Notes: a model not told the origin generated them from the letters alone. DNA of 64,000 nt from Microbacterium sp. (GCF_052102115.1 NZ_JBQDVP010000007.1:1605-65604), one strand, 5' to 3'. Shown: positions 37,564 through 61,360, counted from the first letter of the stretch. A program made the numbers and translations.

Positions 37564-37993
37564 GGAGGCCTGGCCGGACGAGGACGCAATTGTCCAACGG
37601 CCCGTTGGACAATTGCCGTGGGGGCACGTGATCGAGCTGCTCGACAAACTGGACGACCAAGAGTTGCGCGACTGGTACGCCGCGAAGGACGTTCATCACG
37701 GTTGGACCAGATCGGTACTCCAGCACCAGATCACCACTCGCTTACACGAGCGGGAGGCAGCTGCACCGAGCAATTTCGCTGGTGCGCTCGACCAACTCGA
37801 TTCCGAGCAGGCTCAGGAGATCACCAAGGACCCGTATGCACTGCAGTTCCTCGCAGTCGACAGCAATGCCTCCGAACGAGAACTCGAGCAACGCATGCTC
37901 GATCGGATCCTCGACACCATGCGCGAACTCGGACCAGGCCTGGCGTTCGTTGGGCGCCAGGTGCATTTCGATGTCGACGGCGACGACTTCTTC
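37564..37993 (+). pseudogene. YhcG/DUF1016 PDDEXK nuclease, middle fragment (5' deleted, 3' interrupted)
   Basis: EAWPDEDAIVQRPVGQLPWGH...WTRSVL.HQI...KDPYALQFL...ERELE...ELG.G.AFVGRQ...DDFF. Confidence 0.85.
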
Positions 37994-37995
37994 GC

Positions 37996-38024
37996 CGATT
38001 GTTCCGATTCTCGGATTATTCCGA
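37996..38024 (+). repeat. Left terminal inverted repeat CGATTGTTCCGATTCTCGGATTATTCCGA
   Basis: Exact reverse complement of 60957-60985 (29/29). Confidence 0.95.
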
Positions 38025-38215
38025 TCGCAGCGTGAACTGCCCTCGCCGGCGTGGCGAGTCAATCGACGGGCTCGGGATAACGAGCTGCTGTCGTTCGCGA
38101 GCGGAGCCCCGAGTGGCTATGCGTCCTCGCCCCTCGTACCCAGGACGAATACAGGGTGATGCCGCGCTCCGTTTGCAGTCGTCATCCGGCCTGGGCGTGA
38201 CCATCTCGGTCCTGC

Positions 38216-38507
38216 CGAGGTGTCTCAAAACCAACGATGAGTACATTCATCTGGCGCGTAGGATCCGCCCGGATGGCGGGGATCGATAAGGAGGTCGGCT
38301 ACCGATTCCTGCGTGACCGGTACCTCGAGCTGCGTCGTAGCGGCCTGAGCACCGGTGACGCGGTCGATGCGCTCGGGTTCCGTTCGAGTCGCGTGCCGGA
38401 CTGAGAAGCGTTGGTCGGGCGTGATGATCGCCATCATCTGCGGGTCGATCCATCACGAGAGCAGGTGTTCTGGGCAGCGTTCGAGTCCGGGGCGGACTGG
38501 TCCCAAG
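38216..38507 (+). mobile_element. Probable IS30-family left-end remnant (truncated N-terminal HTH region with a stop/frameshift)
   Basis: ARMAGIDKEVGYRFLR HTH-like segment. REQVFWAAFESGADWSQA resembles RVQFWVAIAAGKKTREA of the intact IS30 transposase at 61499-62896. Confidence 0.45.
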
Positions 38508-39303
38508 CGCCTCGACATCGGTTCGTACCCGCCTATGCAGTCGCGCCCGTGGATCGAGGAGCACGACAAGATGTTCCGCTGGTACGACTACTGGATCAAG
38601 GGCATCGACAACGGGATCATGGACGAGCCCGCGCTCAATGTTTTCGTAGAGGGAACGCGCGAGGTCGTCGGCGGCGCGCAGTGGCCGCCGAAGGACGTCG
38701 AGTACCGCTCGCTGTACCTGCGCCCGCGCGGCAAGCTGTCGACGGAGCCGGAGTCGATGACCGCGGAGCACGTCGCTGCGGACGGCTTCTACCAGGCGCC
38801 GCTCACGGTGACCGACAAGGTCGAGAAGCTCATCTGGTCGACGCCCGTGTTCGAAGAGGCGACCGAGCTGATCGGCACCGGCGCGGCGCACGTGTTCGCC
38901 GAGATCGACCAGGACGACACGAATTTCATCCTGCGGCTGTGGGACGAGGCCCCGAAGGCAAGCGCCAGCTGCTGACCACCGGTTTCTCAAGGCGTCGCAC
39001 CGCGAACTCGACACCGAACGCACCGCCGAGGGCAACCCGTGCCACCCGCAAACGCGCGCGGTGCCGGTCGAGCCTGGTGCGATCGAGGGGTACGTGCTGC
39101 GGGTCTACCCGTTCGCGGCGGTGTTGCTGCCCGGCCACCGGCTGACCGTCGAGCTGTCGAACAACGAGCCCTTCGTAGACGAGCACAACTCGCTGCTGCC
39201 GCCCGACGCGTTCCACCTGCCCGTTGGGCGACCGGTGACCCACAAGGTGTACCGTGACGCGCGGCATCCGTCTCGCCTCGTGCTGCCGTTCACAAAGGGC
39301 TGA
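38505..39303 (+). pseudogene. CocE/NonD-family hydrolase, C-terminal fragment with two frameshifts
   Basis: RWYDYWIKGIDNG...WPP...D.DDTNFILRL, then after shifts near 38953 and 38985 LKASHRELD...PVEPG...GHRL.VELS...PSRLVLP. Confidence 0.75.
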
Positions 39304-39333
39304 GTCCCCGCTTCTTTGAATTGTCTCGCGAAA

Positions 39334-39351
39334 CATGTATGGTGATACATG
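39334..39351. promoter_or_regulatory. Putative PadR operator CATGTAT-GGTG-ATACATG
   Basis: 7-4-7 perfect palindrome containing ATGT-N8-ACAT, upstream of the SDR operon. Confidence 0.7.
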
Positions 39352-39386
39352 GTTTGATCGTGAGATCCGATGCGAGGAGTTGTCGA

Positions 39387-40127
39387 ATGCCGGAGAACGA
39401 AGCCAAGGTCGCGTTGATCGTCGGTGGGACCGGCGGAATCGGTGGTGAGACTGCGCGCCGATTGTCGGCAGCGGGCTGGCGCACCGTCATCACGGGTTCC
39501 CGTGAGCAGGCCGCGGGCGATGCGATCGCCGCCGACCTGCCCGGGTCTCACTACGTGCGCGCCGATATGGGTGATGCGGCGTCATCGTCGGTCGTCGTCG
39601 ACGCCGCGGTGGCGGCGTTCGGCCGCCTCGACGCGCTCGTGTACACCGCCGGTGCCACGGCGAAGATCCCGCATTCCGATCTCGCCGCCGTTACCGACGA
39701 CGTGTGGGAGCGCATCCTCACGCACAACATCGTCGCCATCTGGCGCACGATCCTCGCGGCCCAGCCGCACCTGCGCGCCAACGGCGACGGGGCGATCGTC
39801 GTCACGGGCGCGCTGGCGGGCGTTCACGTCGGCGGCAGCAGCATCCCCTATGCGGTCAGCAAGGCGGGCCTGCACCACCTGGTGAAGCTGCTCGGGCCCG
39901 TGCTCGCCCCGGAGGTGCGGATCAACGCCGTCGCCCCAGGCCTGGTCGAGACGCCCTGGACGAGCGATCCGGCGTGGGAGCCGCTCTACCAGTTCTGGCG
40001 CGAGAAGGCGCCGCTGGCCCGCGTCGGCGAGCCCGAGGACGTCGCAGAGGTCGTCCAGTCGCTCATCGAGTGGAAGTACGTCACCGGACGCACGATCGTC
40101 GTCGACGGTGGATTCTCGCTGGTCTGA
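39387..40127 (+). CDS. Short-chain dehydrogenase/reductase
   Basis: VGGTGGIG, YAVSK and NAVAPG motifs. Confidence 0.85.
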   Translation: MPENEAKVALIVGGTGGIGGETARRLSAAGWRTVITGSREQAAGDAIAADLPGSHYVRADMGDAASSSVVVDAAVAAFGRLDALVYTAGATAKIPHSDLAAVTDDVWERILTHNIVAIWRTILAAQPHLRANGDGAIVVTGALAGVHVGGSSIPYAVSKAGLHHLVKLLGPVLAPEVRINAVAPGLVETPWTSDPAWEPLYQFWREKAPLARVGEPEDVAEVVQSLIEWKYVTGRTIVVDGGFSLV

Positions 40128-40150
40128 ATCGAAGAAGGAGCACAACCCAG

Positions 40151-40684
40151 ATGGCCGAACACAACGTCACCCTCTCGGGCGCGGCGCCCGCGCCGACGAC
40201 CAGGAGGTTCCGCCGGCTCGTCACCGGTCTGGACGAGAGCGGCAAGGCCGTCTTCGTCTCAGACGGCGAGAGCCCCTCGGTGCAGGTCGTCGCGAACACG
40301 CCGACGTTCGTCGTCACGAACTTCTGGCAGCACGCCGAGGTGCCCGTCGACAACAACGCCCCGCTCGACGACGGCGTGAGCGGACCGGTGAGCCTCAACC
40401 CTCCCGCCGGCGGATCGGTCTTCCGCATCGTCGAGTTCCCGCCGGACTCGGACTGGTCGGATCGGCCGGACGGCCCGTCCGACCAGGTGCACGCGACACC
40501 GTCGCTCGACTACGCGCTCGTGATCGAGGGCGACGTCTGGGCCGTGCTCGACGGTGAGGAGCGCGAGATGCACCCCGGAGACGTGCTGATCCAGCGGGGC
40601 ACGCGCCACGCCTGGTCCAACCGCACCCAGAAAGCCGCACTCGTCGCCTTCACGCTCATCGGCGGCACCGCCGTCCAGGACTGA
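40151..40684 (+). CDS. Cupin domain protein
   Basis: RRLVTGLDESGKAV N-terminus; VHATPSLDYALV.EG and IQRGTRHAWSN cupin motifs. Confidence 0.8.
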   Translation: MAEHNVTLSGAAPAPTTRRFRRLVTGLDESGKAVFVSDGESPSVQVVANTPTFVVTNFWQHAEVPVDNNAPLDDGVSGPVSLNPPAGGSVFRIVEFPPDSDWSDRPDGPSDQVHATPSLDYALVIEGDVWAVLDGEEREMHPGDVLIQRGTRHAWSNRTQKAALVAFTLIGGTAVQD

Positions 40685-40704
40685 ACCCCGAAAGGAATCG
40701 CATC

Positions 40705-41634
40705 ATGGCCACAATCATCGGCAACATCAGCAGCTCCCACTCTCCGTTGTGGAACCTCAAGCCCGATCCCGAGCCGGGCAACCCCGGTGCGGAGTTCGTG
40801 TCGTACATCGCGAAGGCCCGTGAGATCGTCGAACGGCTCGCGCCCGACGCGATCGTGATCTTCGGCCCCGACCACGCGCGCGGCGTCTTCTACGATCTGC
40901 TCCCCGCCTTCAGCATTGGCGTGGAACGCGTCGTGGGCGCCGGCGACTACTTCACCCCCGACGGCGAGCTGCCGGTCGCGACGCAGCTGGGCATGGACAT
41001 CTTCCAAGGCGTGACCGCCCGCGGCTTCGACCCCGCGATCTCGCTCGACCTGAGGATCGACCACGGGCTCACCCAGGTGTACCAGCGACTGAACCCCGCC
41101 ATCGACATCCCGATCGTGCCGATCATCGTGAACTCCGGCACCTCGCCGCTGCCGACCTTCGCCCGCAGTTACGCGTTCGGCCAGGCCGTCGGCGCAGCCA
41201 TCGCCCAGAGCGACCTCGACGCCCGCGTCCTCGTCATCGGCTCGGGCGGCCTGTCGCACTGGCCGAACTCGATCGATGCCTTCGACACGTCGATCACTCC
41301 GGAGTGGCGCGACTTCCTGATCCACGGGCGCAACCAGGTCGAGGAGCGCGAGGCAGGACGCCAGGCCACCGCCCTCAAGCTCGCCGAGGGCGAAGCGTCC
41401 GGTGAGGTCAACGAGGAGTGGGATCGCGACATCCTGGAGCGGATCCAGGCCGACCCGAGCGTGCTCGGCCGCCTCGACGAGGAGAATATCGAGGTCACCG
41501 CGGGCCCCGGCGCGGGCGAGCTGCGCACGTGGGCGGCCGCCGCCGGCGCCTGGGGCGGATCCATCGCGTGGACCGGGTACGAGCCCGTGCACCGCTGGAT
41601 CACCGGCATGGGCGTCGTGTCGAGCGAGCAGTAG
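40705..41634 (+). CDS. LigB-superfamily extradiol dioxygenase (MhpB-like)
   Basis: SHSP, FGPDH, IDHG, GSGGLSH and ELRTW motifs. Confidence 0.82.
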   Translation: MATIIGNISSSHSPLWNLKPDPEPGNPGAEFVSYIAKAREIVERLAPDAIVIFGPDHARGVFYDLLPAFSIGVERVVGAGDYFTPDGELPVATQLGMDIFQGVTARGFDPAISLDLRIDHGLTQVYQRLNPAIDIPIVPIIVNSGTSPLPTFARSYAFGQAVGAAIAQSDLDARVLVIGSGGLSHWPNSIDAFDTSITPEWRDFLIHGRNQVEEREAGRQATALKLAEGEASGEVNEEWDRDILERIQADPSVLGRLDEENIEVTAGPGAGELRTWAAAAGAWGGSIAWTGYEPVHRWITGMGVVSSEQ

Positions 41635-41642
41635 GGGTCACG

Positions 41643-42506
41643 ATGCCGACCCTGGGAACGACCGAATACCGCACGCCCGCATTCTTCGGCCTCGAGGACC
41701 GATGGATCGAGACCGCGCCGGGTGAGACGACGCACTACCACGAGGCGGGGGAGGGGCTGCCCGTCGTCTTCCTGCACGGATCCGGCACCGGGGTCTCCGC
41801 CGCAGCCAACTGGTGGCGGACCCTTCCCGCGGTGAGCGGTCGGGTGCGGGCGATCGCCCCCGATCTGATCGGGTGGGGAGCCACCGTGCAGCCCGACACC
41901 GCCGCTTTCGGCATCCGGGAGTGGGGGGAGCACGCGCTCCGCCTGCTCGACGCCCTAGGGATCGAGCAGGCCTGGTTCGCGGGCAACTCGCTCGGAGGCT
42001 GGATCGCGCTGCAACTCGCACTCGACCATCCCGACCGGCTGCGGGGGATCGTGTCGATGGGCACCGGTGGTGCGATCGTCAAGACCGCCGCGATCGCGCA
42101 GCACCTCGATCCCGACATCTCGACCGAAGGCCTCAGGAACGCCTTCGGCAAGTTCGTCACCGACCCGTCGATGCTCGAGGACGACATGATCGCGGCCAGG
42201 CAGCAGATCGCCGAGTACGAGGTGAGCACCGGCCGGCTCGCCCGGGTCATGGCGGCGCGCGAACGGGATCGCCATGACCTGCCGCTGCGCCCCGAGCAGT
42301 TGGCGCGGCTGGCGTTGCCGGTGCTGCTCGTCCACGGCAAGCAGGATGTGGTGATCCCCGCCGAACGCACGTGGGAGCTCGCCGGGCAGATCCCGACCGC
42401 CGATGCGCTGGTGCTCAACGGCTGCGGGCACTGGTCGATGATCGAGCGCGCGAACGTGTTCAACCGCGCGCTCGTGGACTTCGTGACCGGCGCATGGCAG
42501 TGCTGA
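41643..42506 (+). CDS. Meta-cleavage product hydrolase (MhpC/BphD-like alpha/beta hydrolase)
   Basis: HGSGTG, GNSLGG nucleophile, HGKQD and CGHW motifs. Confidence 0.82.
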   Translation: MPTLGTTEYRTPAFFGLEDRWIETAPGETTHYHEAGEGLPVVFLHGSGTGVSAAANWWRTLPAVSGRVRAIAPDLIGWGATVQPDTAAFGIREWGEHALRLLDALGIEQAWFAGNSLGGWIALQLALDHPDRLRGIVSMGTGGAIVKTAAIAQHLDPDISTEGLRNAFGKFVTDPSMLEDDMIAARQQIAEYEVSTGRLARVMAARERDRHDLPLRPEQLARLALPVLLVHGKQDVVIPAERTWELAGQIPTADALVLNGCGHWSMIERANVFNRALVDFVTGAWQC

Positions 42507-42538
42507 GCCGCGCCGCGCGGCTGCCCTAGGATCCGAGC

Positions 42539-43228
42539 ATGTCTCTCGAGCACGTCATTCTCGGCTGGCTGAGCACCGGGCCGGGGTCGGGGTACGATCT
42601 CGTGCGCGCGATGGATTTCGGCGTCAACTGGTTCTGGTCGGCACCGCACAGTCAGATCTACCCGAAGCTGAGAGACCTCGAAGAGCGCGGTCTCGTCGAG
42701 TCGGCTCCGACCGTCGTCGGCGAACGACTGGAGAAGCGCATCTACTCGATCACCGAGGAGGGCCGCCGCGCGGTCGACTCCTGGGCGGGCGGGCCGCCGT
42801 CGTACCCGGCCAATCGCGACGTCGAGCGGATCAAGCTCATCTTCGGAGACACCGGAGACCTCAAGGCACTGCGCGTCCATTTCGAACGGCACCACGAGCA
42901 CTACCGGCAGCGCCGCGACGCCATGCGCGCCTTCCTCGACGAAGTCGACGGCCGCCGCCATCGGCGTATCGAGCACCGGATCGCCAGCCGACCCACCGAG
43001 GCGCACGGCGAACTGACCCTGGCCGTTCGCGAACTCGCCTATCGCGGCGACATCGCCCGTGCCGAGAACGAGATGTCGTGGGCCCGTGATGCCCTGGAAT
43101 GGCTGGATCGCTTCGAGGAGAAATGGGGCGTATTGAACGGTGTTCTCCCGCTGGATGGATCAGCGACACCGCCTTCGGAGACAACGGTGGCGATGATGCC
43201 GCGGATCTCTCCGGATCCGTTCCATTGA
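42539..43228 (+). CDS. PadR family regulator
   Basis: LEHVILGWL...SGYDL...HSQIYPKL..LE...YSITEEG. Confidence 0.88.
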   Translation: MSLEHVILGWLSTGPGSGYDLVRAMDFGVNWFWSAPHSQIYPKLRDLEERGLVESAPTVVGERLEKRIYSITEEGRRAVDSWAGGPPSYPANRDVERIKLIFGDTGDLKALRVHFERHHEHYRQRRDAMRAFLDEVDGRRHRRIEHRIASRPTEAHGELTLAVRELAYRGDIARAENEMSWARDALEWLDRFEEKWGVLNGVLPLDGSATPPSETTVAMMPRISPDPFH

Positions 43229-43234
43229 ATGGAA
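43220..43234. promoter_or_regulatory. Putative IclR operator TTCCATTGAATGGAA
   Basis: 7-1-7 palindrome upstream of mhpF; near-identical copy at 46771-46785. Confidence 0.65.
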
Positions 43235-43306
43235 TCCCGTAGCCAGTCGCTTGAAAGCCGTCGTTACAGTCATCCCAAACGCACGTCGAGCGCGAGAGGG
43301 AAACGC

Positions 43307-44254
43307 ATGGCGAAGACGAAGGTCGCGATCATCGGATCGGGGAACATCGGCACGGATCTCATGTTCAAGGTGATGCGCCTGAGCGAGGTCCTCGAGATGG
43401 GGGCGATGGTCGGCATCGATCCCGACTCGGACGGGCTGGCGCGGGCCGCACGGCTCGGCATCCCCACGACCGCTCAAGGTGTGGAAGGCCTCATCGGTCT
43501 GCCAGGGTTCGACGAGATCGAGATCGTCTTCGACGCCACCAGCGCAGGCGCGCACCGGCGCAACGCCGCGGCGCTCGAGCCGTACGGCAAGCTCATGGTG
43601 GACCTGACCCCGGCCGCCATCGGTCCGTACGTGGTGCCCGTGGCCAACCTCGACGAGCACCTGGATGCGACGAACGTGAACATGGTCACGTGCGGCGGCC
43701 AGGCGACGATCCCGATCGTGAGCGCGGTCAGCTCGGTCGTCCCGGTCCACTACGCCGAGATCGTCGCCTCGATCGCGTCGAAGTCGGCCGGACCGGGCAC
43801 GCGTGCGAACATCGACGAGTTCACCGAGACCACCTCGGCCGCGATCGAGCAGGTCGGCGGCGCTGCACGAGGCAAAGCCATCATCATCCTCAACCCGGCG
43901 GAGCCGCCGATGATCATGCGCGACACCGTGCTCCTCATCACCGACCGCCTGAGCGACCAGGAGCGTGGCGAGGTCGAAGCCGCGGTCGAGGCCCGGGTTG
44001 CGGCCGTGGCCGAGTACGTTCCGGGCTACCGCCTGAAGCAGGTCGTGCAGTTCAGCGACCAGGACTCCACAGTCGATCTGCTCGTGCCCGAAGCTCAGCG
44101 CACCGGCGCGTACACGAAGATCTCGGTCTTCCTCGAGGTCGAAGGCGCTGCCATGTATCTTCCGGCGTACGCCGGAAACCTCGACATCATGACCTCCGCC
44201 GCGGTGCGTACCGCCGAGCGGATGGTCTCCACGCGGAAGGCGGTCGTCGCATGA
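43307..44254 (+). CDS. mhpF: Acetaldehyde dehydrogenase (acylating)
   Basis: [34 protein letters not shown] and YAGNLDIMT motifs. Confidence 0.93.
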
Positions 44255-45255
44255 CGAAGATCTACCTGCAGGACGTCACCCTGCGCGACGGGATGCACGC
44301 GATCTCGCATCGCATCGAGCCTGCCAAGGCGGCTGAGATCGCCCGGGCTCTCGACGCGGCGGGCGTCGACGCGATCGAAGTCGCCCACGGCGACGGGCTG
44401 GCCGGATCCAGCCTGACGTACGGTGCCGGCTCGAACACCAACTGGGAGTGGATCGAGGCGGTCGCGGCCGCCGTCGAGAAGGCGGTCCTCACCACGTTGC
44501 TCCTTCCTGGCATCGGCACGATCTCCGACCTCCGCCGCGCGTACGACCTCGGGATCCGGTCGGTGCGGGTCGCCACGCACTGCACCGAAGCGGATGTCTC
44601 GCAGCAACACATCGAGACCGCCAAGTCGTGGGGCATGGACGTCTCGGGCTTTCTCATGATGTCGCACCTGAACGATCCGGCCGGCCTGGCGGCACAGGCC
44701 AAGCTGATGGAGTCCTACGGCGCGGACTGCGTCTACGTCACCGACTCGGCGGGCCGGCTCACCATGGACGGCGTGCGCGAGCGCGTCCGTGCCTACCGGG
44801 ACGTGCTGGACCCGAAGACCCAGATCGGGATCCATGCCCACCAGAACCTGTCGCTCGCGGTGGCGAACTCCGTGATCGCTGTCGAAGCCGGCGCGACCCG
44901 GGTGGACGCCTCGCTCGCCGGTCACGGCGCCGGCGCGGGCAACACGCCGATCGAGCCGTTCGTCGCCGTCGCGAAGCTGACGGGGTGGGATGTCGCGGCC
45001 GACGTCTTCGCACTGCAGGACGCGGCGGACGACCTCGTGCGCCCGCTGCACGACCGTCCGGTGCAGGTCGACCGCGAGACCCTCACGCTCGGCTACGCCG
45101 GCGTGTACTCGAGCTTCCTGCGTCACGCCGAGCGCGTCGGCGCGCAGTACGGCCTCGACGCGCGCGATCTGCTCGTGACCGTCGGCGAGCGGAAGCTCAT
45201 CGGCGGGCAGGAGGACATGATCGAAGACATCGCGCTGGACGCCTCCCGCGCCTGA
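44251..45255 (+). CDS. mhpE: 4-hydroxy-2-oxovalerate aldolase
   Basis: [31 protein letters not shown] and GGQEDMI motifs; ATGA-coupled to mhpF. Confidence 0.93.
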
Positions 45256-45281
45256 CCTTCGGCGCCGAGCGCCTCCTCGGA

Positions 45282-45926: not shown

Positions 45927-45983
45927 ACGCCTCCATCGTCCGGGCTAGGGTAACCGGAAACGCCGGAACCGCCGAGACGGATG

Positions 45984-46742: not shown

Positions 46743-46770
46743 GTCCTTCGAAGGGGTTATGGCGCCGGCG

Positions 46771-52830: not shown

Positions 52831-52837
52831 CAACGAC

Positions 52838-52878
52838 GTGTGTCCGGGGCGGCACCGCGCCGCCCCGGACACACTTTT
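52838..52878 (+). terminator. Intrinsic terminator-like hairpin between the SBP and ALDH genes
   Basis: GTGTGTCCGGGGCGGC / GCCGCCCCGGACACAC followed by TTTT. Confidence 0.7.
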
Positions 52879-52915
52879 CCGCACGATAGAGTCCGCACGA
52901 TAGAGAAGGAATCCC

Positions 52916-54349
52916 ATGACAGAGCGTTATGGCCACATCATCGATGGCCACGAGGTCGAGTCGACACTCGGCCACCAGTTCCAGAGCATCGATCCCTATG
53001 ACCAGAAGCCGTGGGCCGAAGTGGCATTCGGCGGCGCTCCCGATGTCGACCGCGCGGTGGCCGCAGCCCGGCACGCGTTCGACGAGGGTCCCTGGCCGCG
53101 CATGACGCACGAAGAGCGACGCTCGCTGATCCACCGGTTCGCGGATCTCATCATCGAGAACGGCGCAGAGCTCGCCCTCGCCGACACGCGCGACATGGGC
53201 AAGCCCTACGCGCAGGCGCTCGGCAACGACGTGCCCCGGACGGCCGCCAACTTCCGCTTCTTCGCCGATCACGCCGCGCTCGCCACCGGTGACGTGTATC
53301 CGCGCGACGATCGCCACCACCTGTACTCCAGCTACGACCCGGCGGGCGTCGTCGCGGCGATCGCGCCGTGGAACTTCCCCATGATGCTCGAGAGCTGGAA
53401 GGTCGCCCCCGCCCTGGCGTGGGGCAACACCGTCGTGCTCAAGCCCGCCGAGGACTCCCCGGCGTCGGCCACGATCCTCGCGCGGCTCGCGCTCGAAGCC
53501 GGCATTCCGGCGGGCGTCTTCAACGTCGTGCATGGCTACGGCCCGGACTCCGCAGGTCAGGCCCTGACCGAGAGCCCCTTCATCGACCGCATCACCTTCA
53601 CGGGCGAGTCCAACACGGGGCGCGTCATCGCCGCTGCGGCGGCGAAGAACCTCGTGCCGGTCAGCCTCGAGCTCGGCGGTAAGGGCGCCAACATCGTGTT
53701 CGACGACGCCGACATCGACAACGCGGTGGAGTGGTCGATCAATGCCGCGTTCACCAACACCGGTCAGGTGTGTCTGGCGGGTTCGCGGCTGTACGTGCAG
53801 CGCGGCATCCTGCCCGAGTTCAAGCGGCGTTTCGTCGCCGCCGCCGAAGCGATGGTCGTGGGCGACCCCAAGGACGATTCCACCCAGATCGGTCCACTGT
53901 CGTCGGACGAGCACTACACCAAGGTGCGTCGCTACTTCGATAGCATCGAGCAGGCCGGCGGTTCGATCGACACCGGTCGGCTCGGCGACGGCTGGACCAT
54001 CACGCCCACGGTCATCTCGGGTCTGTCCGAAGAAGCCCCGCACCTTCGCGAAGAGATCTTCGGTCCCATCGTGTCGATGACCCCGTTCGACACCGTCGAC
54101 GAGGCGGTGCGGCTCGTGAACGCGTCGCCCTTCGGCCTGAACGCGATGATGTTCACCGAGAACCTGTCGACGGCCCACAAGGTCGCCGGCCGCCTCCGCG
54201 TCGGCACAGTGTGGGTGAACTGCTTCTTCATCCGCGACCTGCGCGCTCCGTTCGGCGGTGCGGGCGATTCGGGTGTCGGGCGAGAAGGCGGCAACTTCAG
54301 CCGCGAGTTCTTCACCGAGCCCAAGGCCGTCGTCATGCAGCTGAACTGA
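52916..54349 (+). CDS. 2-hydroxymuconic semialdehyde dehydrogenase-like aldehyde dehydrogenase
   Basis: RTAANFRFFAD, PWNFP, FTGES.TG, ELGGK, GQVCLAGSR and IRDLRAPFGG motifs. Confidence 0.82.
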   Translation: MTERYGHIIDGHEVESTLGHQFQSIDPYDQKPWAEVAFGGAPDVDRAVAAARHAFDEGPWPRMTHEERRSLIHRFADLIIENGAELALADTRDMGKPYAQALGNDVPRTAANFRFFADHAALATGDVYPRDDRHHLYSSYDPAGVVAAIAPWNFPMMLESWKVAPALAWGNTVVLKPAEDSPASATILARLALEAGIPAGVFNVVHGYGPDSAGQALTESPFIDRITFTGESNTGRVIAAAAAKNLVPVSLELGGKGANIVFDDADIDNAVEWSINAAFTNTGQVCLAGSRLYVQRGILPEFKRRFVAAAEAMVVGDPKDDSTQIGPLSSDEHYTKVRRYFDSIEQAGGSIDTGRLGDGWTITPTVISGLSEEAPHLREEIFGPIVSMTPFDTVDEAVRLVNASPFGLNAMMFTENLSTAHKVAGRLRVGTVWVNCFFIRDLRAPFGGAGDSGVGREGGNFSREFFTEPKAVVMQLN

Positions 54350-54377
54350 TCCACCCGACCTCGCAAGGAGAAACGAC

Positions 54378-54575
54378 ATGCCGCTCATCACCGTAAACAT
54401 CGCCGAGGGTCGTTCCGAGGCGGACATCCGCAAGCTCATGGCCGCGCTGCACACCGCGGCGCACGAGTCGATCGGCGCACCGGAGCCGAGCATCCGCGTG
54501 ATCGTGAACGAGGTCGCCACGGACCGGTGGCTGAGCGGCGGGCAGACGCTCGCCGAGAAGGCTGCCCGCAGCTGA
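54378..54575 (+). CDS. 4-oxalocrotonate tautomerase family protein
   Basis: 65 aa with catalytic Pro1 (MPLITV) and GRS motif. Confidence 0.85.
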   Translation: MPLITVNIAEGRSEADIRKLMAALHTAAHESIGAPEPSIRVIVNEVATDRWLSGGQTLAEKAARS

Positions 54576-54601
54576 CCAGACGCCTGCGCGGGCGGGCCGC
54601 C

Positions 54602-55564
54602 TCACACTTCGAGCGACGCCTCCAGGGGTGGGGTGGCCCACGAGTGGAACGTGGCCGGCACCGGGGTGCCCCACGCCGTGCCGCGACCGTCGGCCTCGGT
54701 GGTCCACGTCACCGGCTCCCAGTCCGGCTGGAAGATGTGGATGCCGTCGGTGAAGATCTCGACGCGGTTGCCGCCTGGCTCGATGACGTACACGAAGAAG
54801 CCCTGCGTGCGCGAGTGCTTCGCCGGGCCGAACTCGACCGGAGTGCCCAGCTGGAGGAACATGTCCGCTGCGCGGATCACGTCCATGTGACTCTCGACCG
54901 CGTAGGCGAGGTGGTGCAGGCGTCCCTCTGTGGGCGAGGGCTCCCTTGTCAGCGCGAGGTCGTGCGCCTTCGTCATGACACTCAGCCACGCGCCGACCTC
55001 GTCGCCGCCGGCCGGAGTCAGCCGTTCGCGCAGCTTGAAGCCGAGCGTCTCTTGCTGAAACGCGCTCGCCGCTGCCACATCGGGCACCAGCACGTTGATG
55101 TGGTCGATGTGCGCGGCCGCCGCCCCGTGCGGAATGAACCGTTGTGCCTGGTTCGGCAGGTAGGGCTCCTCGCCGGGCGGGGCCACGTACTTCTCGGTCT
55201 CGAAGTAGACCTCCTGCACGTGGCCGCCGATGCCGGCGAACCTGTAGGCGGCGCCGTGGCCGAGATCGCCGTCGTGCCATTCGCCCTCGATGCCGCGCGC
55301 CTCCAGAGCGTCCACGGGGCGCTGGAGCGCCTGCGGACTCGTCGTGCGCCATGCCATGTGGCCCAGGCCCGGGTGCGTGGTCGCGGTCAGCCGCAGGGAC
55401 GTGAGAACGTCGTCGTTCCAGGCACGCAGGTACACGGCATCCTTCGTCTCACCGACGGGGAACAGTCCGTAGGTGTCGGTGAAGAATCGTGCGCTCGCCT
55501 CGAGATCCGGCGTCAGCAACTCGACGTGGCCGAGCTGGGCCACGTCGTAGATGGGCTCGGACAT
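54602..55564 (-). CDS. Catechol 2,3-dioxygenase (VOC type I)
   Basis: LGHVEL, IDHINV, AHDLAL, LHHLAY, GPAKH and EPGGNRVEIF motifs. Confidence 0.88.
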   Translation of the reverse strand: MSEPIYDVAQLGHVELLTPDLEASARFFTDTYGLFPVGETKDAVYLRAWNDDVLTSLRLTATTHPGLGHMAWRTTSPQALQRPVDALEARGIEGEWHDGDLGHGAAYRFAGIGGHVQEVYFETEKYVAPPGEEPYLPNQAQRFIPHGAAAAHIDHINVLVPDVAAASAFQQETLGFKLRERLTPAGGDEVGAWLSVMTKAHDLALTREPSPTEGRLHHLAYAVESHMDVIRAADMFLQLGTPVEFGPAKHSRTQGFFVYVIEPGGNRVEIFTDGIHIFQPDWEPVTWTTEADGRGTAWGTPVPATFHSWATPPLEASLEV

Positions 55565-55565
55565 G

Positions 55566-56507
55566 TCAGACGCGTGTCTGCGCCGCTTCGGTCAGCGCCT
55601 GAACGGCCGCGGCATCCGCGTCGTTGTCGGCGGTGAGGATCTGACGCTGAGTCGACGGCTTCTGCGAGCTGCCGCCCCACATGTCGATCGCACCGAACAT
55701 CGTCGGATCGAAGGTGCGGGGGATCCAGGCGTCGTCGTCGTGAATCAGCCGCACGTTCCACGAGTACTCGTACGTGAAGCCCTCGGGACCCTTGAAGTAG
55801 AGGAAGACGGCGCCCGACTGCGGGTGGCGGCCGGGCCCCTGCTCGATCTCGACGTCGTGCTCCTTGAGGAAGTTCCAGTTGCGGAAGATCGCGTCGATCT
55901 CGTCGACCTGGAAGTTCATGTGGCAGAGGCCCGGCTCATCGCCCTGGAAGACCGCCAGAGTGTGGTGCACCGGGTTGAAGCGCATGAGCGCTGCGTTGTT
56001 CTGCACCCAGTCCGACACCTTGATGTTGAAGTTTTCGGTCCAGAACTCCGCCGCCTTGTAGATGTCTTTCGCGTCGACGCACAAGTGCCCGAACTCGGTG
56101 ATACCGCTCGATGCGCGCGTCAGCTCCAGGAACGACGGGTCGTGCATCTGCCCGATCACGAGGTCGAACTTGTTGCCCCAGGGGTCATCGAATGAGATGA
56201 AGTCCGTCACGCGGCGGCTGCGCGCTTCTTCGTCGGTGCCGCGATGCACGCGGATGCCGATGGATTCGAGGTGTTTGGCGGCATTGTGCAGCGCCTTGTC
56301 GTCGCGCAGGACGAGGCCGCTCGAGAGCACTCCGCTCTCGCCCTCGACGAACGCGAGGCAGTGCTGACGCTTGTCGGCGCGCAGGTAGTGGACACCGTCG
56401 TCGGCGCCCTGATACTTCATTCCGACGATGTCGCGGGCGAAGCCGACGGCGGTATCGACGTCCTTCGCGCCGCTTCGGACATAGCCGATGTCAACGAGTT
56501 CGATCAT
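55566..56507 (-). CDS. BphC-like VOC extradiol dioxygenase
   Basis: FGHL, HHTLA, CHMNFQV, GPGRH and FTYEYSW ligand pattern. Confidence 0.78.
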   Translation of the reverse strand: MIELVDIGYVRSGAKDVDTAVGFARDIVGMKYQGADDGVHYLRADKRQHCLAFVEGESGVLSSGLVLRDDKALHNAAKHLESIGIRVHRGTDEEARSRRVTDFISFDDPWGNKFDLVIGQMHDPSFLELTRASSGITEFGHLCVDAKDIYKAAEFWTENFNIKVSDWVQNNAALMRFNPVHHTLAVFQGDEPGLCHMNFQVDEIDAIFRNWNFLKEHDVEIEQGPGRHPQSGAVFLYFKGPEGFTYEYSWNVRLIHDDDAWIPRTFDPTMFGAIDMWGGSSQKPSTQRQILTADNDADAAAVQALTEAAQTRV

Positions 56508-56546
56508 TTCAATTGCTCCTTCGTCGGAGGTGGCGTACTTTCAGTA

Positions 56547-56564
56547 TAGGTATACATATACATA
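56547..56564. promoter_or_regulatory. Second putative PadR operator TAGGTAT-ACAT-ATACATA
   Basis: Same 7-4-7 geometry and half-sites as 39334-39351; lies between the divergent dioxygenase and padR genes. Confidence 0.65.
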
Positions 56565-56592
56565 TGTCACAAGTGATACTAGGGTGGCACTC

Positions 56593-57162
56593 GTGTCCCT
56601 GCGCTTCGCGATTCTCGGCATCCTCGAGGCCACGCCCATGACGGGGTACGAGCTGGGTCAGCGGTTCGCCTCGAGTGCACGATGGGTGTGGTCGGCTCCC
56701 CGGAGCCAGATCTATCCGCTGCTGGCCAAGCTCGAAGCCGACGGGCTCATCGCGGGGGAGCACGCCATCGTCGATGGGCGTGCCCAGCGCCGCTATGGCA
56801 TCACCGGCGACGGATGCCGCGAACTGCGCCGGTGGGTGAGCGAAGCGCACGACCTGCCGCCGGTGCGCGACCCGATGCTGCTGCACGCACTGTTCCTTGA
56901 CATCGTCGGCGTCTCCGAAGCCGAGGAGGTGCTCCGAGGCGAATGGGCGGCCGAGCGCGCGCGGATCGTCGAGTGGGAGGCACACCGCGATGCGCTCGCA
57001 GCGGGGAAGACGCCGGTGATCCGGGCCCGGCTGCGCAATCGCGATCCGAGCGAGCACGAGCGGATCACCCGCATCAAGGCCGCGGCCTTCAACGGTCTGG
57101 TCGAGACCGGTCGTGCGCGGCTGCGGTGGCTAGAGTCGATGATCGAAGCGGTCCGCGACTGA
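56593..57162 (+). CDS. PadR family regulator
   Basis: LRFAILGIL...TGYEL...RSQIYPLL.KLE...YGITGDG. Confidence 0.88.
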   Translation: MSLRFAILGILEATPMTGYELGQRFASSARWVWSAPRSQIYPLLAKLEADGLIAGEHAIVDGRAQRRYGITGDGCRELRRWVSEAHDLPPVRDPMLLHALFLDIVGVSEAEEVLRGEWAAERARIVEWEAHRDALAAGKTPVIRARLRNRDPSEHERITRIKAAAFNGLVETGRARLRWLESMIEAVRD

Positions 57163-57218
57163 CGTCCCCGGCGCCGAGCCAGCCGTGCCGGATCGGGCCG
57201 AAGCCTTGTTGCGCCGGG

Positions 57219-57597
57219 TCAGGCAGGGGCGCGCCAGAGGCTGCGGCGCTCGATGAACTCCGCCGTCATGGTCGAGGCGTGCTCTTCGGGCGCCTGCGCG
57301 TCGAGCATGCGGATCGCCATCGTGACGCCGAGCTCGCCCAGCCGTTCGAGCGGTGGTCGGATCGTGGTGAGCGCCGGCATCATGAAGTCCGCACCGAACA
57401 CATCGTCGTTGCCGCAGACGCTCAGCTCGTCCGGAACCGAGACGCCGAGCCGCTGGAGTTCGAGGATCAGCCCGATGGCGCGGAGGTCGTTGAACGCGAC
57501 CACCAGCGTCGCACGCGAGGCGAGCACCGGCGCGGCCGCCTCCCGCCCGCCGTCCAGCCCAAACGGGAAGGCTCCGAGCGTCTCGATCCGCAGCCCG
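57219..57597 (-). pseudogene. LacI-family regulator, C-terminal fragment
   Basis: VVAFNDLRAIG, SVCGNDD and LTTIRPP motifs; no HTH; begins immediately after the ritC stop. Confidence 0.8.
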
Positions 57598-58626
57598 TCA
57601 GGTAGTGAGTCCGCAGAGTCGCCGGATGATGTCGTCTCGGTCGTGCCACATCGGTACGGCCGGTGGACTGGCGGTGCCGACGGTGGTCTTGGCGAGAGCT
57701 CGACGTTTCATCTCGGTGTCGGCGTGGGCGTAGATGAGTGTGGTCTCGGGATCCGTGTGCCCGAGCCATTCGGTGATCAGCGCCAGGGGCATGCCCGCTT
57801 GGTAGAGGTGCATGGCACGGGAGTGGCGCAGCATGTGGGGGTGTACCTTCTCCGGGATCTCCGTGCAGCTCTCGCGGGCGGTGCTGGCATGATGGCGAAC
57901 GAATCGGCCGACGTTGTCGTCGGACATGCGTGTCTTGCGGTGACCGTGGATGGTGAAGAACAACGGCTGGTCAGCGGTGGGATCGTGGTGGAACACCTCG
58001 GTGTAGCGGCGATAGTGGGCAGCGGTCTCGCTGGTGATAGGTAGCCGCCGCGGTTTCGCACCCTTCCCGACCAGGTCGACGGTGAGTCGCCTGAGATCGA
58101 TATCGCCGACGGTCAGGGCGAGCATCTCAGCGTCGCGGGCCGCGACGTCATACATCAAGATCATGAAGAACTGGTCGCGAAGGCCGGTCTTCGTGGCGTG
58201 ATCGGGCGCGGCAAGCAGCGCCGTGACGGCGCCGGTCGTCAGATAGTGGACGGATGGGGTCGCTGTGGTCTTCAGCTGCGGGACGCCGTTGACGTCAGCC
58301 AGGTGGATGGCGAGGATCGGTTCGGCGGTAGCGGCGTAGCGGAAGAAGGACCGGATGCAGGCGAGCCGTTGGTTGTAGGTCGTCGCGGTCCACGAACGCG
58401 TTGCCCTCATGTGGTCGAGGAATTCGATGATGCAGGCCCGGTTAATGATGGAGAACGTCACGTGCTCGAGTGGGACCCCGCGGGTCTCCGCGACGTATCC
58501 CAGGAGCATATTCCAGGTGTGGCGGCACGCGGTGATCGTGTGCGGGCTGACTCCGCGTTGCCGAGGCATGAAAACGGTGAACCACTCGCGCAGGTGCCGG
58601 TAGAAGTCGTCGGTGGGATTGGTCAT
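57598..58626 (-). CDS. Tyrosine recombinase, third gene of the RIT trio (RitC-like)
   Basis: AAR.AE, GKG.K.R, HPHMLRHS and WLGH....TLIY catalytic residues are intact. Confidence 0.9.
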   Translation of the reverse strand: MTNPTDDFYRHLREWFTVFMPRQRGVSPHTITACRHTWNMLLGYVAETRGVPLEHVTFSIINRACIIEFLDHMRATRSWTATTYNQRLACIRSFFRYAATAEPILAIHLADVNGVPQLKTTATPSVHYLTTGAVTALLAAPDHATKTGLRDQFFMILMYDVAARDAEMLALTVGDIDLRRLTVDLVGKGAKPRRLPITSETAAHYRRYTEVFHHDPTADQPLFFTIHGHRKTRMSDDNVGRFVRHHASTARESCTEIPEKVHPHMLRHSRAMHLYQAGMPLALITEWLGHTDPETTLIYAHADTEMKRRALAKTTVGTASPPAVPMWHDRDDIIRRLCGLTT

Positions 58627-59561
58627 GATGTCACTTCCGGGATGATGCCCGCCGCGCTCGTCAGGCCGGTTGCGGCCAGGCGCTCGGGAAGCAGATGGAT
58701 GTAGTAGGCAGTGGTCGAGTAGGTGTTGTGACCCATGTAGGCCGACAGGTACGGCAGCCAGACATTGAGGTCGCGGCCCTCCTCGACCCATCGCGTCAGG
58801 GTGCGTGTGGCGTAGTTGTGGCGCAGCGTGTACGGCGTGGAACCGGGTGCGACGCCGCCCGCACGATCACGGCAGCGGTGATAGTGGGCCGTGATCCAGC
58901 GGCCCGGGTAGGGCTGTTCTGGGTGGTCCTCGAAGAAGAACTCCCGGCCGGGCCGGCGCAGATCGGCGAGCTCGTCAAACCGGGCCAACAGGTCGGCCAT
59001 GCCGGTGTCCACCGGGACACGGCGGTCCTTGTTCCGTTTCGACTGCTCGATCGTCACGATGGCGCCGCCGAGGTCGACGTTCCGGCGGCGGAGCAGTCGG
59101 GCTTCTTGGGGCCGCAGCCCGCAGCCCAGCATCAGTCGGAAGAGCACCGGGATCGTGTACTCACGGAATGGGCTGGTCCCGGAGGGGGTGACCAAGTCGG
59201 TAGCTCCGAAGAAGGCGGCCAGTTCGCTGTCACTGAAGATGTGGGGCAGGTTCCTGGTGGGCTGTCGGATCCACTGCGCGGGCAGCACGAATGCTTCCAC
59301 GCCGACCAGGTGCAGGTACCTGCCGAACTCGCGAATCGCGTGGCCCTTGTACGCAGGCCATTCAACCCTCGCGCCTTCTTGACACCAGGCGGTGACCAGT
59401 TCCCGGGTCAGGATCGGCTCGCCAGGCGGGTGTGCGACGCAATACCGGTCGAAGCTGAGCATCGGATACGCGAGTGTGCGGCGGGAGTAGCCGAGAGCTG
59501 TGCGCCACTGGAGCATCGCCTCGATGTGAGTGGCGAAGCCGCTGCTGAACGTGATGGTCAT
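58623..59561 (-). CDS. Tyrosine recombinase, second gene of the RIT trio (RitB-like)
   Basis: CGLRPQE, SK.NKDR, YTLRHNYA and LSAYMGH....TAYY motifs; ATGA overlaps on both sides. Confidence 0.9.
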   Translation of the reverse strand: MTITFSSGFATHIEAMLQWRTALGYSRRTLAYPMLSFDRYCVAHPPGEPILTRELVTAWCQEGARVEWPAYKGHAIREFGRYLHLVGVEAFVLPAQWIRQPTRNLPHIFSDSELAAFFGATDLVTPSGTSPFREYTIPVLFRLMLGCGLRPQEARLLRRRNVDLGGAIVTIEQSKRNKDRRVPVDTGMADLLARFDELADLRRPGREFFFEDHPEQPYPGRWITAHYHRCRDRAGGVAPGSTPYTLRHNYATRTLTRWVEEGRDLNVWLPYLSAYMGHNTYSTTAYYIHLLPERLAATGLTSAAGIIPEVTS

Positions 59562-60780
59562 CGCGGGGCGCCCTTCGCTAGGGCGAAGCTGTCGAGAGGG
59601 AGGGCGCAGTCACGGAGGAATTCGTCGGCCAGCGCGATGTAGCGTCGAGAGGAGTCAATGCTGGCGTGACCGAGCACCTGCGCCGTCAGCGCCAGCTCGG
59701 CTCCGGACTCGATCAGGCGGGTGCCCGTCGTGCGCCGCAGCGCGTGGGACGTCTTACCGTCATGTGCGCGGTGCGACACGCCTTGGCAAGCCACCGGCGC
59801 ATGATGAGAGCCCCCGTTGGCCCGGTCAGCTTCGTGAACGGCGCGTAGAGACGGACGAATACCTCGGGCGCATCGCTATCGGGTCTTCCGTGCAGGAGCC
59901 AGTCCGCGATCGCGTTGCCGGCGTCCGCCGACAGTGGCAGTGTCAACGGCGCCGAGGTCTTATTCTGCACCAGGCGGATCTCATCGTTGTGCCAGTCGAT
60001 CTGGTTGAGCCGGAGTGACACGATGTCGCAGCAGCGAAGCCCGGTCGACAGCGCCAACCGGACCATCGCGTAGTCCCTCTTCCCGCGGGGGGTTGCGGTC
60101 TCGATCGCGCTGACGAGCCGGTCAGCCTCCTCGGGGGTGAAGCAGGGTAGCGCACGCGTCCGTCTCGGCCCGACCCGCGCCAGCAGGGCATCGACCTTCA
60201 ATTCGGTCAGCCGCTGATGGTTCAGGAACTGGAGGAACCGCTTGATGGCCCACACCGTGTTTCCCATGCCCGATGCGTGACGCGGCCTCGCTTCGACGAG
60301 AAATGCTCGGACATCGTCGACAGAGACCGATTCGAGCGAACGGCCGACGCGGTCCAGATAACCCATGAATCCGCGGGCTTCACTGACCACATCGCGCACC
60401 GAGCCAGGCGCGAGTTCCTTCTGCACGTGCTGAGCGAAGCCGCTGAGAACCACCGTGGCAGACGCGCTCAGGCTCGATGCTGGCCTTCGTCGTTTCCATA
60501 CGACCGCGCCGGTCCGCTGGAACTCCAGCATCAGCCGGGCAATCTTCTCCAAGTTCGATCGCAGCCCAGCGTGGATCTCACCTCGGCGCACTCGATCATC
60601 CATTGCCGCGAGGAACTCCTCCACGGCCCGCTCGGTCAGCTGATCGATTCCTCGGCTGTGCGAGAACCGCATCACGGTCCAGCAGCAGCTCCGGTAGTAC
60701 CGGATCGAGCCGGGCGCCAGGCCGATGCGCGTGGCCTCTGCCAACACGCCCTCGGCAACCCAAGATGGTTCGTCATTCAC
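59558..60780 (-). pseudogene. Tyrosine recombinase, first gene of the RIT trio (RitA-like), frameshifted
   Basis: TGLRCCDI and QNKT are in one frame, while SHALRRT and VLGH....RRY are in another; shift near 59779-59790. Confidence 0.8.
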
Positions 60781-60956
60781 GACCCAACCTCCTGTCGGAC
60801 GGCGTCGCGGCCGCTCCAAAGACGGTCGCGACACGCACCACAATCCCGCGGAAAGGTGCCGACGACTACCCGTTCCGTCGGCTTCTGAGGCGCATGCGGA
60901 TTATTCCGAGCCAGACAGGTGGCTGCACCATGCCCCAGGAGCCCGTCAGGCAGTCG

Positions 60957-60985
60957 TCGGAATAATCCGAGAATCGGAACAATCG
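60957..60985 (-). repeat. Right terminal inverted repeat
   Basis: TCGGAATAATCCGAGAATCGGAACAATCG, exact complement of the left IR. Confidence 0.95.
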
Positions 60986-61014
60986 ACATTATGCCGAGGT
61001 CGGCATAACGTCGA
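60983..61014. repeat. Palindrome TCGAC-A-TTATGCCGA-GG-TCGGCATAA-C-GTCGA outside the right IR
   Basis: 14 of 15 arm positions are complementary; core motif resembles the IR motifs. Confidence 0.9.
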
Positions 61015-61360
61015 CCTGCTGTTCTTCCACGTCGAGCAGTTGAGGTACGTCGTGATCGAGCTTAAGGTCAGCAAGTTTGAGCCACGTGACGCCGGACAGA
61101 TCGGGTTCTATGTTGCGCTCGTCGACGACCGCCTCCGGATCACCGAGAAGCACCAGCCAACCATCGGGATCCTGCTCGTCGCCGACAAGAACGACACTGT
61201 CGTCCGTTACGCGCTCGCTGGCGCTGCCCAGCCGGTCGCGGTGAGCAGGTACGAGCTCACTCCGGAAACGCAGAAGGCGCTGCCGGATGAAGAGACGATC
61301 ACGCGGGCGTTCGAGGACGAGCTCGCGCTTGAGGCCTCTGCCGATGATGACGACGACTGA
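61010..61360 (+). pseudogene. YhcG/DUF1016 nuclease, C-terminal fragment
   Basis: VDLLFFH...YVVIELK...F.PRDAGQIGFY...PTIGILL...VRYAL; continues the 37564-37993 fragment. Confidence 0.88.

Follow-up and report, generated by a model that had tools for sequence, protein, structure and literature searches.

A cargo-bearing recombinase-in-trio (RIT) element in a YhcG/DUF1016 gene of Microbacterium and its probable DNA target

Introduction

What decides where a RIT (recombinase in trio) element integrates, and what can such an element carry? The question is raised by a stretch of 64,000 nucleotides of a Microbacterium sp. genome (GCF_052102115.1, NZ_JBQDVP010000007.1:1605-65604; hereafter the window, meaning the whole stretch analysed), in which a nuclease gene of the YhcG/DUF1016 family is split by a large insert. 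RIT elements (ritABC) were first described in Cupriavidus metallidurans CH34 (Van Houdt 2009; Van Houdt et al. 2012, PMC3414803). In published accounts they measure about 3.5 kb, end in inverted repeats (IRs) of 28-34 bp with a palindrome, and have not been demonstrated to be mobile, and their RitA has two sequential core-binding domains (PMC8138268). A comparison table of 2023 gives their target specificity and movement as 'not tested' (PMC10214605; cf. PMC5737581), and our literature search found no paper linking RITs with DUF1016. We consider it very likely that the insert is a cargo-bearing RIT that was integrated by site-specific recombination of the tyrosine-recombinase type, via a dif-like core, into a DNA word made of YhcG codons. 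The observations behind this reading are a precise split, terminal repeats with boxes, repeated insertion into independent targets at one and the same codon, both orientations of the element, variable triplets at the junctions and differing cargo in one bay. The RIT class itself was already known; what is new here is a defined target site and the cargo.

Results and Discussion

The insert splits YhcG at one codon

Excision in silico of positions 37994-61009 (23,016 bp) restored a YhcG/DUF1016 reading, …DGDDFF/VDLLFFH… (the slash marks the break here and below). The left frame reads ...LPWGHVIELL...FDVDGDDFF with its last base at 37993, and joining 37613-37993 to 61010-61360 gave a single open frame, ...FDVDGDDFF/VDLLFFHVEQLRYVVIELK.... 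In the Pfam search, positions 1-60 of the 157 of the YhcG_C profile close the left piece and positions 61-149 open the right one (6.3e-27), both pieces scoring above the cut-off and together covering 1-149 of 157; DUF1016_N (81-137 of 137) lies further left in the left piece. The break, at YhcG_C position 60/61, precedes the first catalytic Asp codon. Furthermore, the genome has an uninterrupted YhcG paralogue on contig C91, which reads DGDEFFVDLLFFHVEQLRYVV, and the intact YhcG genes of two relatives (G009 and G035) align across the site with zero extra bases. Because the frames rejoin, the profile is cut at 60/61 and the intact paralogue and relatives cross the site, we conclude that the split is exact to the codon and that the insert measures 23,016 bp. 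This bears out a sequence-only reading of the window, according to which the insertion is precise and in frame and its removal rebuilds YhcG. In 60 relatives searched with the junction DNA we found intact YhcG genes only and no orthologous occupied site; no solved structure related to YhcG by sequence was found.

The ends and the recombinase genes are those of a RIT

A repeat search found two 40-nt terminal inverted repeats, 88% complementary to each other (Table 1). A 9-bp box, TTRTBCCGA, occurs in eight copies in the window, all of them at the element ends; by chance, 1.27 copies would be expected, and none of 100 shuffled sequences attained eight. The geometry is alike at both ends, with box1, then box2 17 nt inward and an inverted box3 47 nt past box2. 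Between the right inverted repeat and the resumed YhcG lies a 22-bp palindrome, which is part of the element and not of YhcG, because it is absent from intact YhcG genes and stands next to one IR in every related RIT. In its own 3.2-Mb genome, the inverted-repeat 28-mer occurs at the two ends only, and a second copy of the element, sought with this 28-mer, was not found.

Three co-oriented tyrosine recombinase genes on the minus strand adjoin the right end, with ATGA overlaps at ritA/ritB and ritB/ritC. Pfam Phage_integrase was found in all three products, and their best NCBIfam matches were XerC, XerD and XerA, each below the cut-off. A scan for RitB relatives gave three close elements (85-91% amino acid identity), those of Microbacterium sp. 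Gd 4-13 (G511/L022), M. flavescens JCM 3877 (L023) and Agrococcus sp. KRD186 (L024); RitC is 91% identical to that of Gd 4-13. In addition, RitB has matches of about 30% identity, spanning 90% or more of its length (97% is reached), on C. necator pHG1 (7 places), on the EbN1 plasmid of A. aromaticum (3 places) and on plasmids of S. herbicidovorans. These replicons have been named as RIT carriers (PMC3414803; PMC5737581), which makes the match one at replicon level. The ritA gene is a pseudogene: in the DNA alignment with L022, L023 and L024 its frameshift precedes the catalytic block and leaves HxxR, LGH and RRY out of frame, and the Pfam integrase match is limited to positions 3-100 of 172. 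RitA also has two separate SAM-like N-terminal matches (37-81 and 140-210), the first below the Pfam cut-off. Since ritA is frameshifted, the window copy can probably no longer move unaided.

We assign the insert to the RIT class on the strength of its gene content, its homologies and its ends. It resembles published RITs in its three co-oriented Xer-like recombinase genes with 4-bp overlaps (4-8 bp in published RITs) and in its terminal inverted repeats with a palindrome beside one end. It differs from them in its length of 23,016 bp with a 19.5-kb catabolic cargo, whereas published RITs are of about 3.5 kb and cargo-free, in its occurrence in Actinomycetota, in its defined target codon and in its broken ritA, owing to which not all three recombinases in the window have a complete catalytic motif. 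RITs were reportedly also described by Ricker et al. in 2013 (Plasmid 70:226).

Table 1. Features of the element and of the split YhcG gene (window positions)
Feature	Position	Strand	Remarks
Left (N-terminal-side) YhcG piece	37563..37993	+	ends ...DGDDFF; without about the first 108 residues
Left 6-bp exchange region CGCCGA	37993..37998	+	middle triplet GCC (O1)
Left terminal inverted repeat	37996..38035	+	40 nt; ritC-distal end
Left box1 TTGTTCCGA	37999-38007		box scan
Left box2 TTATTCCGA	38016-38024		box scan
Left box3 TTATCCCGA, inverted	38072..38080	-	47 nt inside box2; spacing mirrors right end
Cargo	38100..57594		about 19.5 kb between ritC and far end; Pfam, NCBIfam
PepX_C fragment	38355-38975		cargo border
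LacI C-terminal fragment	57219-57515		cargo border
ritC	57598..58626	-	intact, 342 aa, start MTNPTD; Phage_integrase 1.1e-27; 4-nt overlap with ritB (ATGA)
ritB	58623..59561	-	intact, 312 aa; Phage_integrase 2e-16
ritA pseudogene	59558..60785	-	4-nt deletion between 59783 and 59782; shifted frame stops at 59713
Right box3 TTATTCCGA	60901..60909	+	47 nt inside box2
Right terminal inverted repeat	60946..60985	-	40 nt; ritA-proximal end
Right box2	60957-60965
Right box1	60974-60982
6-bp spacer TCGACA of intact unused core	60983..60988	+	between box1 and palindrome; holds triplet O3
22-bp palindrome ATTATGCCGA-GG-TCGGCATAAC	60988..61009	+	two inverted boxes, 60989-60997 and 61000-61008
Right 6-bp exchange region CGTCGA	61009..61014	+	middle triplet GTC (O2)
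Right (C-terminal) YhcG piece	61010..61360	+	VDLLFFHVEQLRYVVIELK... to stop codon at 61360

Related elements lie at the same YhcG codon

In M. flavescens and Agrococcus, the repeats of the related element are flanked by YhcG halves split at the position found in the window. In Gd 4-13, the element forms a separate contig and two YhcG halves end two other contigs; multiple copies, considered on account of the contig-sized element, were ruled out, as this genome has a single split YhcG at contig ends and its assembly broke at the IRs. Three RITs on Rhodococcus plasmids (pRWAY03, RHA1 pRHL1 and the plasmid of Rhodococcus sp. JS3073, L175), with RitB 62-63% identical to that of the window, are 3.5-kb elements located at FFV/DLLFFH or FYI/DLLFFN of YhcG; 3.5 kb is the length of the relatives L025, L027, L173 and L174. 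A metagenome scan with the inverted-repeat pattern returned at least 120 stretches. At least five of these contigs have the GATTGTTCCGA end type and, among the matches listed, all five flanks are YhcG (L041, L068, L119, L131 and L142), with Pfam matches that stop at profile position 60/61 or begin at 61; L076, a low-GC contig whose end type is related, has the same YhcG site. Taken by their GATT(G/A)TTCCGA ends, the RITs with a readable flank at YhcG 60/61 are those of the window, G511/L022, L023, L024, L173, L174 and L175 and, among the matches listed, the five metagenome loci, the sole exception listed being one element in an unrelated gene (G567, below). The relatives at this site thereby amount to three genomes, three Rhodococcus plasmids and five metagenome contigs. 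The sequence-only reading had proposed collecting split DUF1016 genes with related RITs to see whether the breaks cluster, and they do, at YhcG_C 60/61. Across 401 Microbacteriaceae genomes, YhcG occurs in 43 only, and RIT-associated breaks at positions 60-62 are limited to the window and Agrococcus.

One further YhcG gene was considered as a same-site case and left uncounted (G067; L033, G067:C1, 8090-8110): it has an in-frame internal deletion after the same Phe (GDDF/LICGSRNDH), with no RIT nearby, and may be a coincidence or a scar. Additionally, L175 shows the palindrome and a YhcG C-terminal half at both ends (IDLLFFHVEQ / LDLLFFHLAC, at 2568 and 6067), a layout that would be expected from recombination between two copies in different YhcG genes.

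Junction triplets suggest a heterology-tolerant exchange

The junctions share one layout. The left junction reads, in every case, target-left, NNN and GA-TTGTTCCGA (box1), the right one palindrome, NNN, GA(C/T) and target-right, and all relatives have this arrangement of box1, spacer and palindrome, the window spacer being TCGACA. The triplets in the left exchange region, the right exchange region and the unused core (O1, O2 and O3, respectively) are GCC, GTC and GTC in the window, GTC, GTC and GCC in Gd 4-13, and CTC, GTC and ATC in Agrococcus; L142 has GTC as O2 and TGC as O3. Among relatives, the left triplet varies at the same position (GTC, ATC, TGC, CTC). In all 11 cases, the palindrome is on the DLLFF side with either orientation of the trio, and the IR beside it is ritA-proximal in the window, Gd 4-13, M. 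flavescens and pRHL1 and on the ritC side in Agrococcus, pRWAY03 and G567. The repeat matching in four of five bases that the sequence-only reading had noted at the junctions is present (GCCGA at 37994-37998, GTCGA at 61010-61014), and its idea of coupling sequences fits, the middle triplet of the exchange region being variable and looking carried over.

These features are consistent with the following course of integration. The target word would be ...GAY GAN TTC TWC NNC / GAY CTG CTN TTC TTC CAC, supplied in high-GC actinobacteria mostly by the conserved 'DDFFx/DLLFFH' codons of YhcG/DUF1016, with TTCTWC and CTGCTNTTCTTC as the words flanking C-NNC-GA. In a putative circular form, the two inverted-repeat ends would flank the 22-bp palindrome, and the circle would hold two dif-like cores of the type box, 6-bp spacer, box (TCGGMAYAA-NNNNNN-TTRTKCCGA). 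One core would swap strands with the target across the 6-bp C-NNC-GA, and the circle would open with box1 of one IR joined to the left half of the target and the palindrome, the other IR behind it, joined to the right half. Either core could be usable, or the integrated element could invert, which would lead to both trio orientations with the palindrome constantly on the DLLFF side. A match in the middle triplet would not be required: one copy would come from the target and one from the element, hence GCC at the left junction and GTC at the right one. An exchange by heterology-tolerant recombination with carry-over from earlier sites, as in Tn554, SEs and Tn916, would give such junctions and fits because the middle triplets O1, O2 and O3 vary. 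We infer the circular intermediate and the exact cleavage points; a division of labour among the recombinases and a movement of the 23 kb as one unit would be inferences as well. A target that mimics the boxes was also considered; half-sites in YhcG, compared by eye in register with the core, gave no convincing similarity, and the idea was dropped.

A catabolic cargo occupies a bay beside ritC

The cargo codes for a PepX_C fragment, an SDR, a LigB-type dioxygenase, an alpha/beta hydrolase, PadR, an acetaldehyde dehydrogenase, a DmpG-type aldolase and a class II aldolase; for IclR, two FAA-hydrolase-family genes, two ABC permeases, an ATPase and an NMT1-type binding protein; and for an SDR, an aldehyde dehydrogenase, two VOC/BphC-type extradiol dioxygenases, PadR and a LacI C-terminal fragment. 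It is a catabolic set of the meta-cleavage type, with a DmpF/DmpG-like pair, hydratase-family genes and dehydrogenases plus an ABC transporter. Within 39321-57162 lie the genes of three extradiol dioxygenases, of the two lower branches of meta-cleavage, of an ABC importer and of a pair of PadR regulators, whereas a ring-hydroxylating oxygenase was not seen there.

The elements of the window, Gd 4-13 and M. flavescens have in common a 3.4-kb backbone (89-91% nucleotide identity; 86-91% for relatives overall) plus about 100-150 nt of the distal arm. The spacer between ritC and the distal arm is a cargo bay filled with unrelated DNA in each: the 19.5-kb catabolic cluster in the window, 5.8 kb with a hydrolase and TetR in Gd 4-13, and 6.6 kb with a cupin, SulP and a phosphoketolase in M. 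flavescens. No homology of the window cargo to the cargo of L022, L023 or L024 was found. The breakpoint past ritC is at +4 nt in the window versus about +30 nt in L022 and L023, and because these breakpoints differ, cargo was captured repeatedly and illegitimately. A search for the source of the cargo, covering 150 genomes of the genus and 72,556 plasmids, gave nothing closer than about 75% (dmpFG).

These borders bear on whether the 23 kb arrived together. A 3.5-kb RIT may have entered YhcG alone, and the 19.5-kb catabolic segment may have been added later, in place, by illegitimate or RIT-mediated recombination, in which case the 23 kb would never have been mobile as one unit and 'cargo' would be a misnomer for the window copy. 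Genes are truncated at both cargo borders (PepX_C and LacI fragments), the window breakpoint past ritC is unlike that of L022 and L023, the GC content of the cargo equals that of the host flanks (0.675 vs 0.677), and a second copy of the 23-kb unit was found neither in its own genome nor in the 150 genomes of the genus and 72,556 plasmids, all of which would suit such a two-step origin. On the other hand, the independently inserted elements of the window, G511 and L023 hold different cargo in the same bay inside intact ends, as expected of a bay that transposes, and at the cargo borders we saw nothing left of a second target site or of a further mobile element. We regard the two-step origin as a serious possibility, if the less probable one, and the conclusion on the target site is the same whether the element arrived as one unit or in two steps.

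The insertions arose independently

Could the shared position reflect common descent rather than target choice, a single ancient insertion having been inherited vertically in an already split YhcG? The window and G511 belong to the same genus, and their YhcG proteins look orthologous (78-85% amino acid identity) and are interrupted in the same orientation, as this would predict. As a measure of divergence, we took the identity of third positions in conserved fourfold codons. For the window and Gd 4-13 it was 0.82-0.87 in the rit genes versus 0.45-0.53 in the YhcG halves beside them, and for the window and M. flavescens 0.78-0.84 versus 0.40-0.41. Because synonymous identity in the rit genes far exceeds that in YhcG, the insertions are independent and the elements much younger than the divergence of their target genes. 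Furthermore, O1 and O3 are GCC and GTC in the window and GTC and GCC in G511; the other hosts belong to other genera and to two orders, with copies on chromosomes and plasmids and the trio in both orientations; their YhcG flanks are merely 50-70% identical, and most relatives have an intact YhcG. Vertical descent is thus very improbable. Hardly credible is a chance insertion at a conserved motif or a contig misjoined at short repeats, as a draft genome and the G511 assembly, broken exactly at the element repeats, might suggest, given the identical architecture in complete plasmids and other assemblies, the base-exact junctions with box geometry mirrored between the ends, and more than 10 further insertions at the same codon.

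Site-specific integration of a cargo-bearing RIT is the reading that we favour, and several points weigh against it. A circular form, an empty site and an excision product are not among our observations. The target half-sites have no clear similarity to the element boxes. The gene fragments at the cargo borders and the differing breakpoints past ritC show that cargo entered illegitimately, possibly after integration. In addition, ritA is broken in the window copy. Lastly, the window comes from a draft of 123 contigs, in which the 40-nt repeats may in principle have led to a wrong join.

Recognition of DNA rather than of a gene

The one related element outside YhcG belongs to another Microbacterium (G567), has the same box1 and a RitC 65% identical to that of the window, and is joined on its palindrome side to LDLHYFMAHDH.... 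A Pfam scan of this flank fragment gave no match; it was placed via intact homologues with a GCSFC motif, which read ...GCSFC/LDFNYF..., and the gene is one that we take to be 'AhpD-like' (CxxC). The G567 site, GGCTGCAGCTTCTGC CTC GAC CTGCACTACTTC, matches the YhcG site, GGCGACGACTTCTTC GTC GAC CTGCTGTTCTTC, in 24 of 33 bases, the upstream half being that of the intact homologues, since the G567 contig ends before it. Because this site, in an unrelated gene, mimics the YhcG site in its DNA, the recognition is of DNA and not of the gene.

Other RITs go elsewhere. Those with the repeat start TATTACTCCGA number at least 68 (including L025, L026, L172 and dozens of the metagenome loci within L036-L151), and their target is almost always the catalytic-Tyr region of the tyrosine-recombinase gene of another RIT, LGHxxPxxTYW/YLxAxPELL. 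Among the matches listed, the plain-side flank was readable in 31 and has T(Y/F)(W/Y) as its end in each, in 30 of them within a GHxxPxxTYW context, the 31st being L064, while 35 palindrome-side flanks begin with (W/R)Y(L/I), mostly followed by xAxPEL; in total, 66 flanks were readable among these matches, two of which (L064) lie in a transposase-like mimic and one is a further outlier. At L064 (2083-5606), a TATTAC-class RIT is located in a DDE-transposase-like gene at KTYW/YLREMG, a DNA look-alike of the usual recombinase-gene target, and this mimic in a sister clade parallels the G567 mimic of the YhcG site. Repeats starting with CATAAT, CATCAT or CATAAC are mostly at HDLR/H(A/S)F of tyrosine-recombinase genes (L105, L153, L063, L092, L097, L154 and others), the His codon CAT being common to this target and the first three repeat bases, and L027 lies within a DDE transposase gene. 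In this regard, the first three repeat bases, GAT, TAT or CAT, track the target codon (GAC/GAT for Asp, TAC for Tyr, CAT for His). Additionally, a low-GC RIT clade, GATTATTCCGATTTCCGG (L073, L135 and L121 on the plain side, L099 on the palindrome side), splits a protein at ...FDIIFYVRMKDGISQVIVNL/(V)EAQKNEP...; this protein has no Pfam match, and its motif resembles the D...ExQ/K nuclease motif.

A RitC tree separates a distinct window clade (100/99), a Rhodococcus clade (100/100) and a TYW/YL clade (100/99) and does not settle the order among them. The target specificity is a property of the RIT clade of the window and not of all RITs. The claim of the sequence-only reading that the GTCGAC codons of DUF1016 are a specific RIT target holds for this clade and fails for RITs overall, the sister clades using TYW/YL, HDLR/H and transposase genes. 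Its picture of DUF1016 genes as landing pads agrees with the recurrent insertions at YhcG 60/61 and needs amending insofar as what is recognised is a DNA word, met by G567 in a gene other than YhcG.

The split YhcG gene and its surroundings

The split YhcG has suffered a second damage, a 5' truncation near 37563, where it adjoins a minus-strand C-terminal fragment of the TetR family (37209-37589) and where homology to the G511 YhcG begins. Because both genes are truncated at this junction, a separate deletion or rearrangement brought them together. A perfect palindrome (CAATTGTCCAACGG/CCCGTTGGACAATTG, about 37588-37616) lies within the YhcG frame just past the junction. Directly downstream of the split gene is an IS30-type transposase gene (HTH_38 and rve; 61499-62700, minus strand), and because of this neighbour the gene can be placed in a patch of mobile DNA. 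The rejoined YhcG protein matches PADLOC PDC-S02 at 1.6e-92 but spans positions 109-352 of 357 only. The insertion had also been said to knock out a defence function; the link to defence is PDC-S02, a candidate family, and this copy of the gene already lacks its 5' end.

Comparison with other recombinase systems

The Tn554 family and the SEs share with the window element several tyrosine recombinases together, site-specific insertion and the absence of a true target duplication, and they carry about six flanking bases from the previous site into the circular intermediate, like O1, O2 and O3. They differ in their targets, in having two recombinases (one unusually long) with TnpC/Srap and in lacking long terminal inverted repeats; the window element has three recombinases and clear IRs and lacks a fourth conserved gene. 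GInt elements (2017, PMC5385486) also combine three tyrosine-recombinase-like genes at one island end with tens of kb of cargo and site-specific integration, but they need a fourth gene, ginD, and have not been described with RIT-type inverted repeats and palindrome. Past ritC, the window has only the LacI fragment, and the canonical 3.5-kb relatives have three genes between their IRs; no ginD profile was searched. Compared with the well-known dif site of XerC/D, the window core similarly consists of two inverted arms, ...CATAA / TTATG..., around a 6-bp centre, but the YhcG target has no dif-like arms and the recombinases are three and encoded by the element. With Tn916 and CTnDOT, the element has in common the tolerance of heterology in the exchange region and the carriage of mismatched bases between sites (coupling sequences); they differ in their single integrase with arm-type sites and Xis, the absence of a trio and a much looser choice of target.

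Significance for RIT biology

RITs are widespread, and after more than 15 years their movement, their choice of target and their need for three recombinases have remained undescribed. This locus and its relatives provide a 30-bp target, a two-core site model with a 6-bp exchange region and a tolerated variable triplet, relatives with an intact trio (Microbacterium sp. Gd 4-13, M. flavescens JCM 3877, Agrococcus sp. KRD186 and R. jostii RHA1 pRHL1), together with evidence for RITs that enclose 6-20 kb of cargo, by which RITs may have been moving catabolic genes in actinobacteria unrecognised. A wider view, whose chances we see as evenly balanced, is that RITs as a class are homing elements, each clade being directed to one short DNA word, the coding sequence of a conserved catalytic motif in a gene of mobile DNA or of defence, with the repeat start and the 6-bp spacer co-varying with the target codon, O1-O3 recording earlier sites and a cargo bay at the ritC-distal side. 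The motifs in question would be the PD-(D/E)xK Asp of YhcG, TYW/YL beside the catalytic Tyr, HDLR/H and motifs of transposase genes. That codons of catalytic motifs are preferred, in genes of nucleases, recombinases and transposases, suggests that mobile elements compete with one another or that candidate defence genes are inactivated (YhcG = PADLOC PDC-S02). If this class-wide homing is true, tens of kb could be moved, here a complete meta-cleavage pathway, while the nuclease of a rival element or of the host is disabled.

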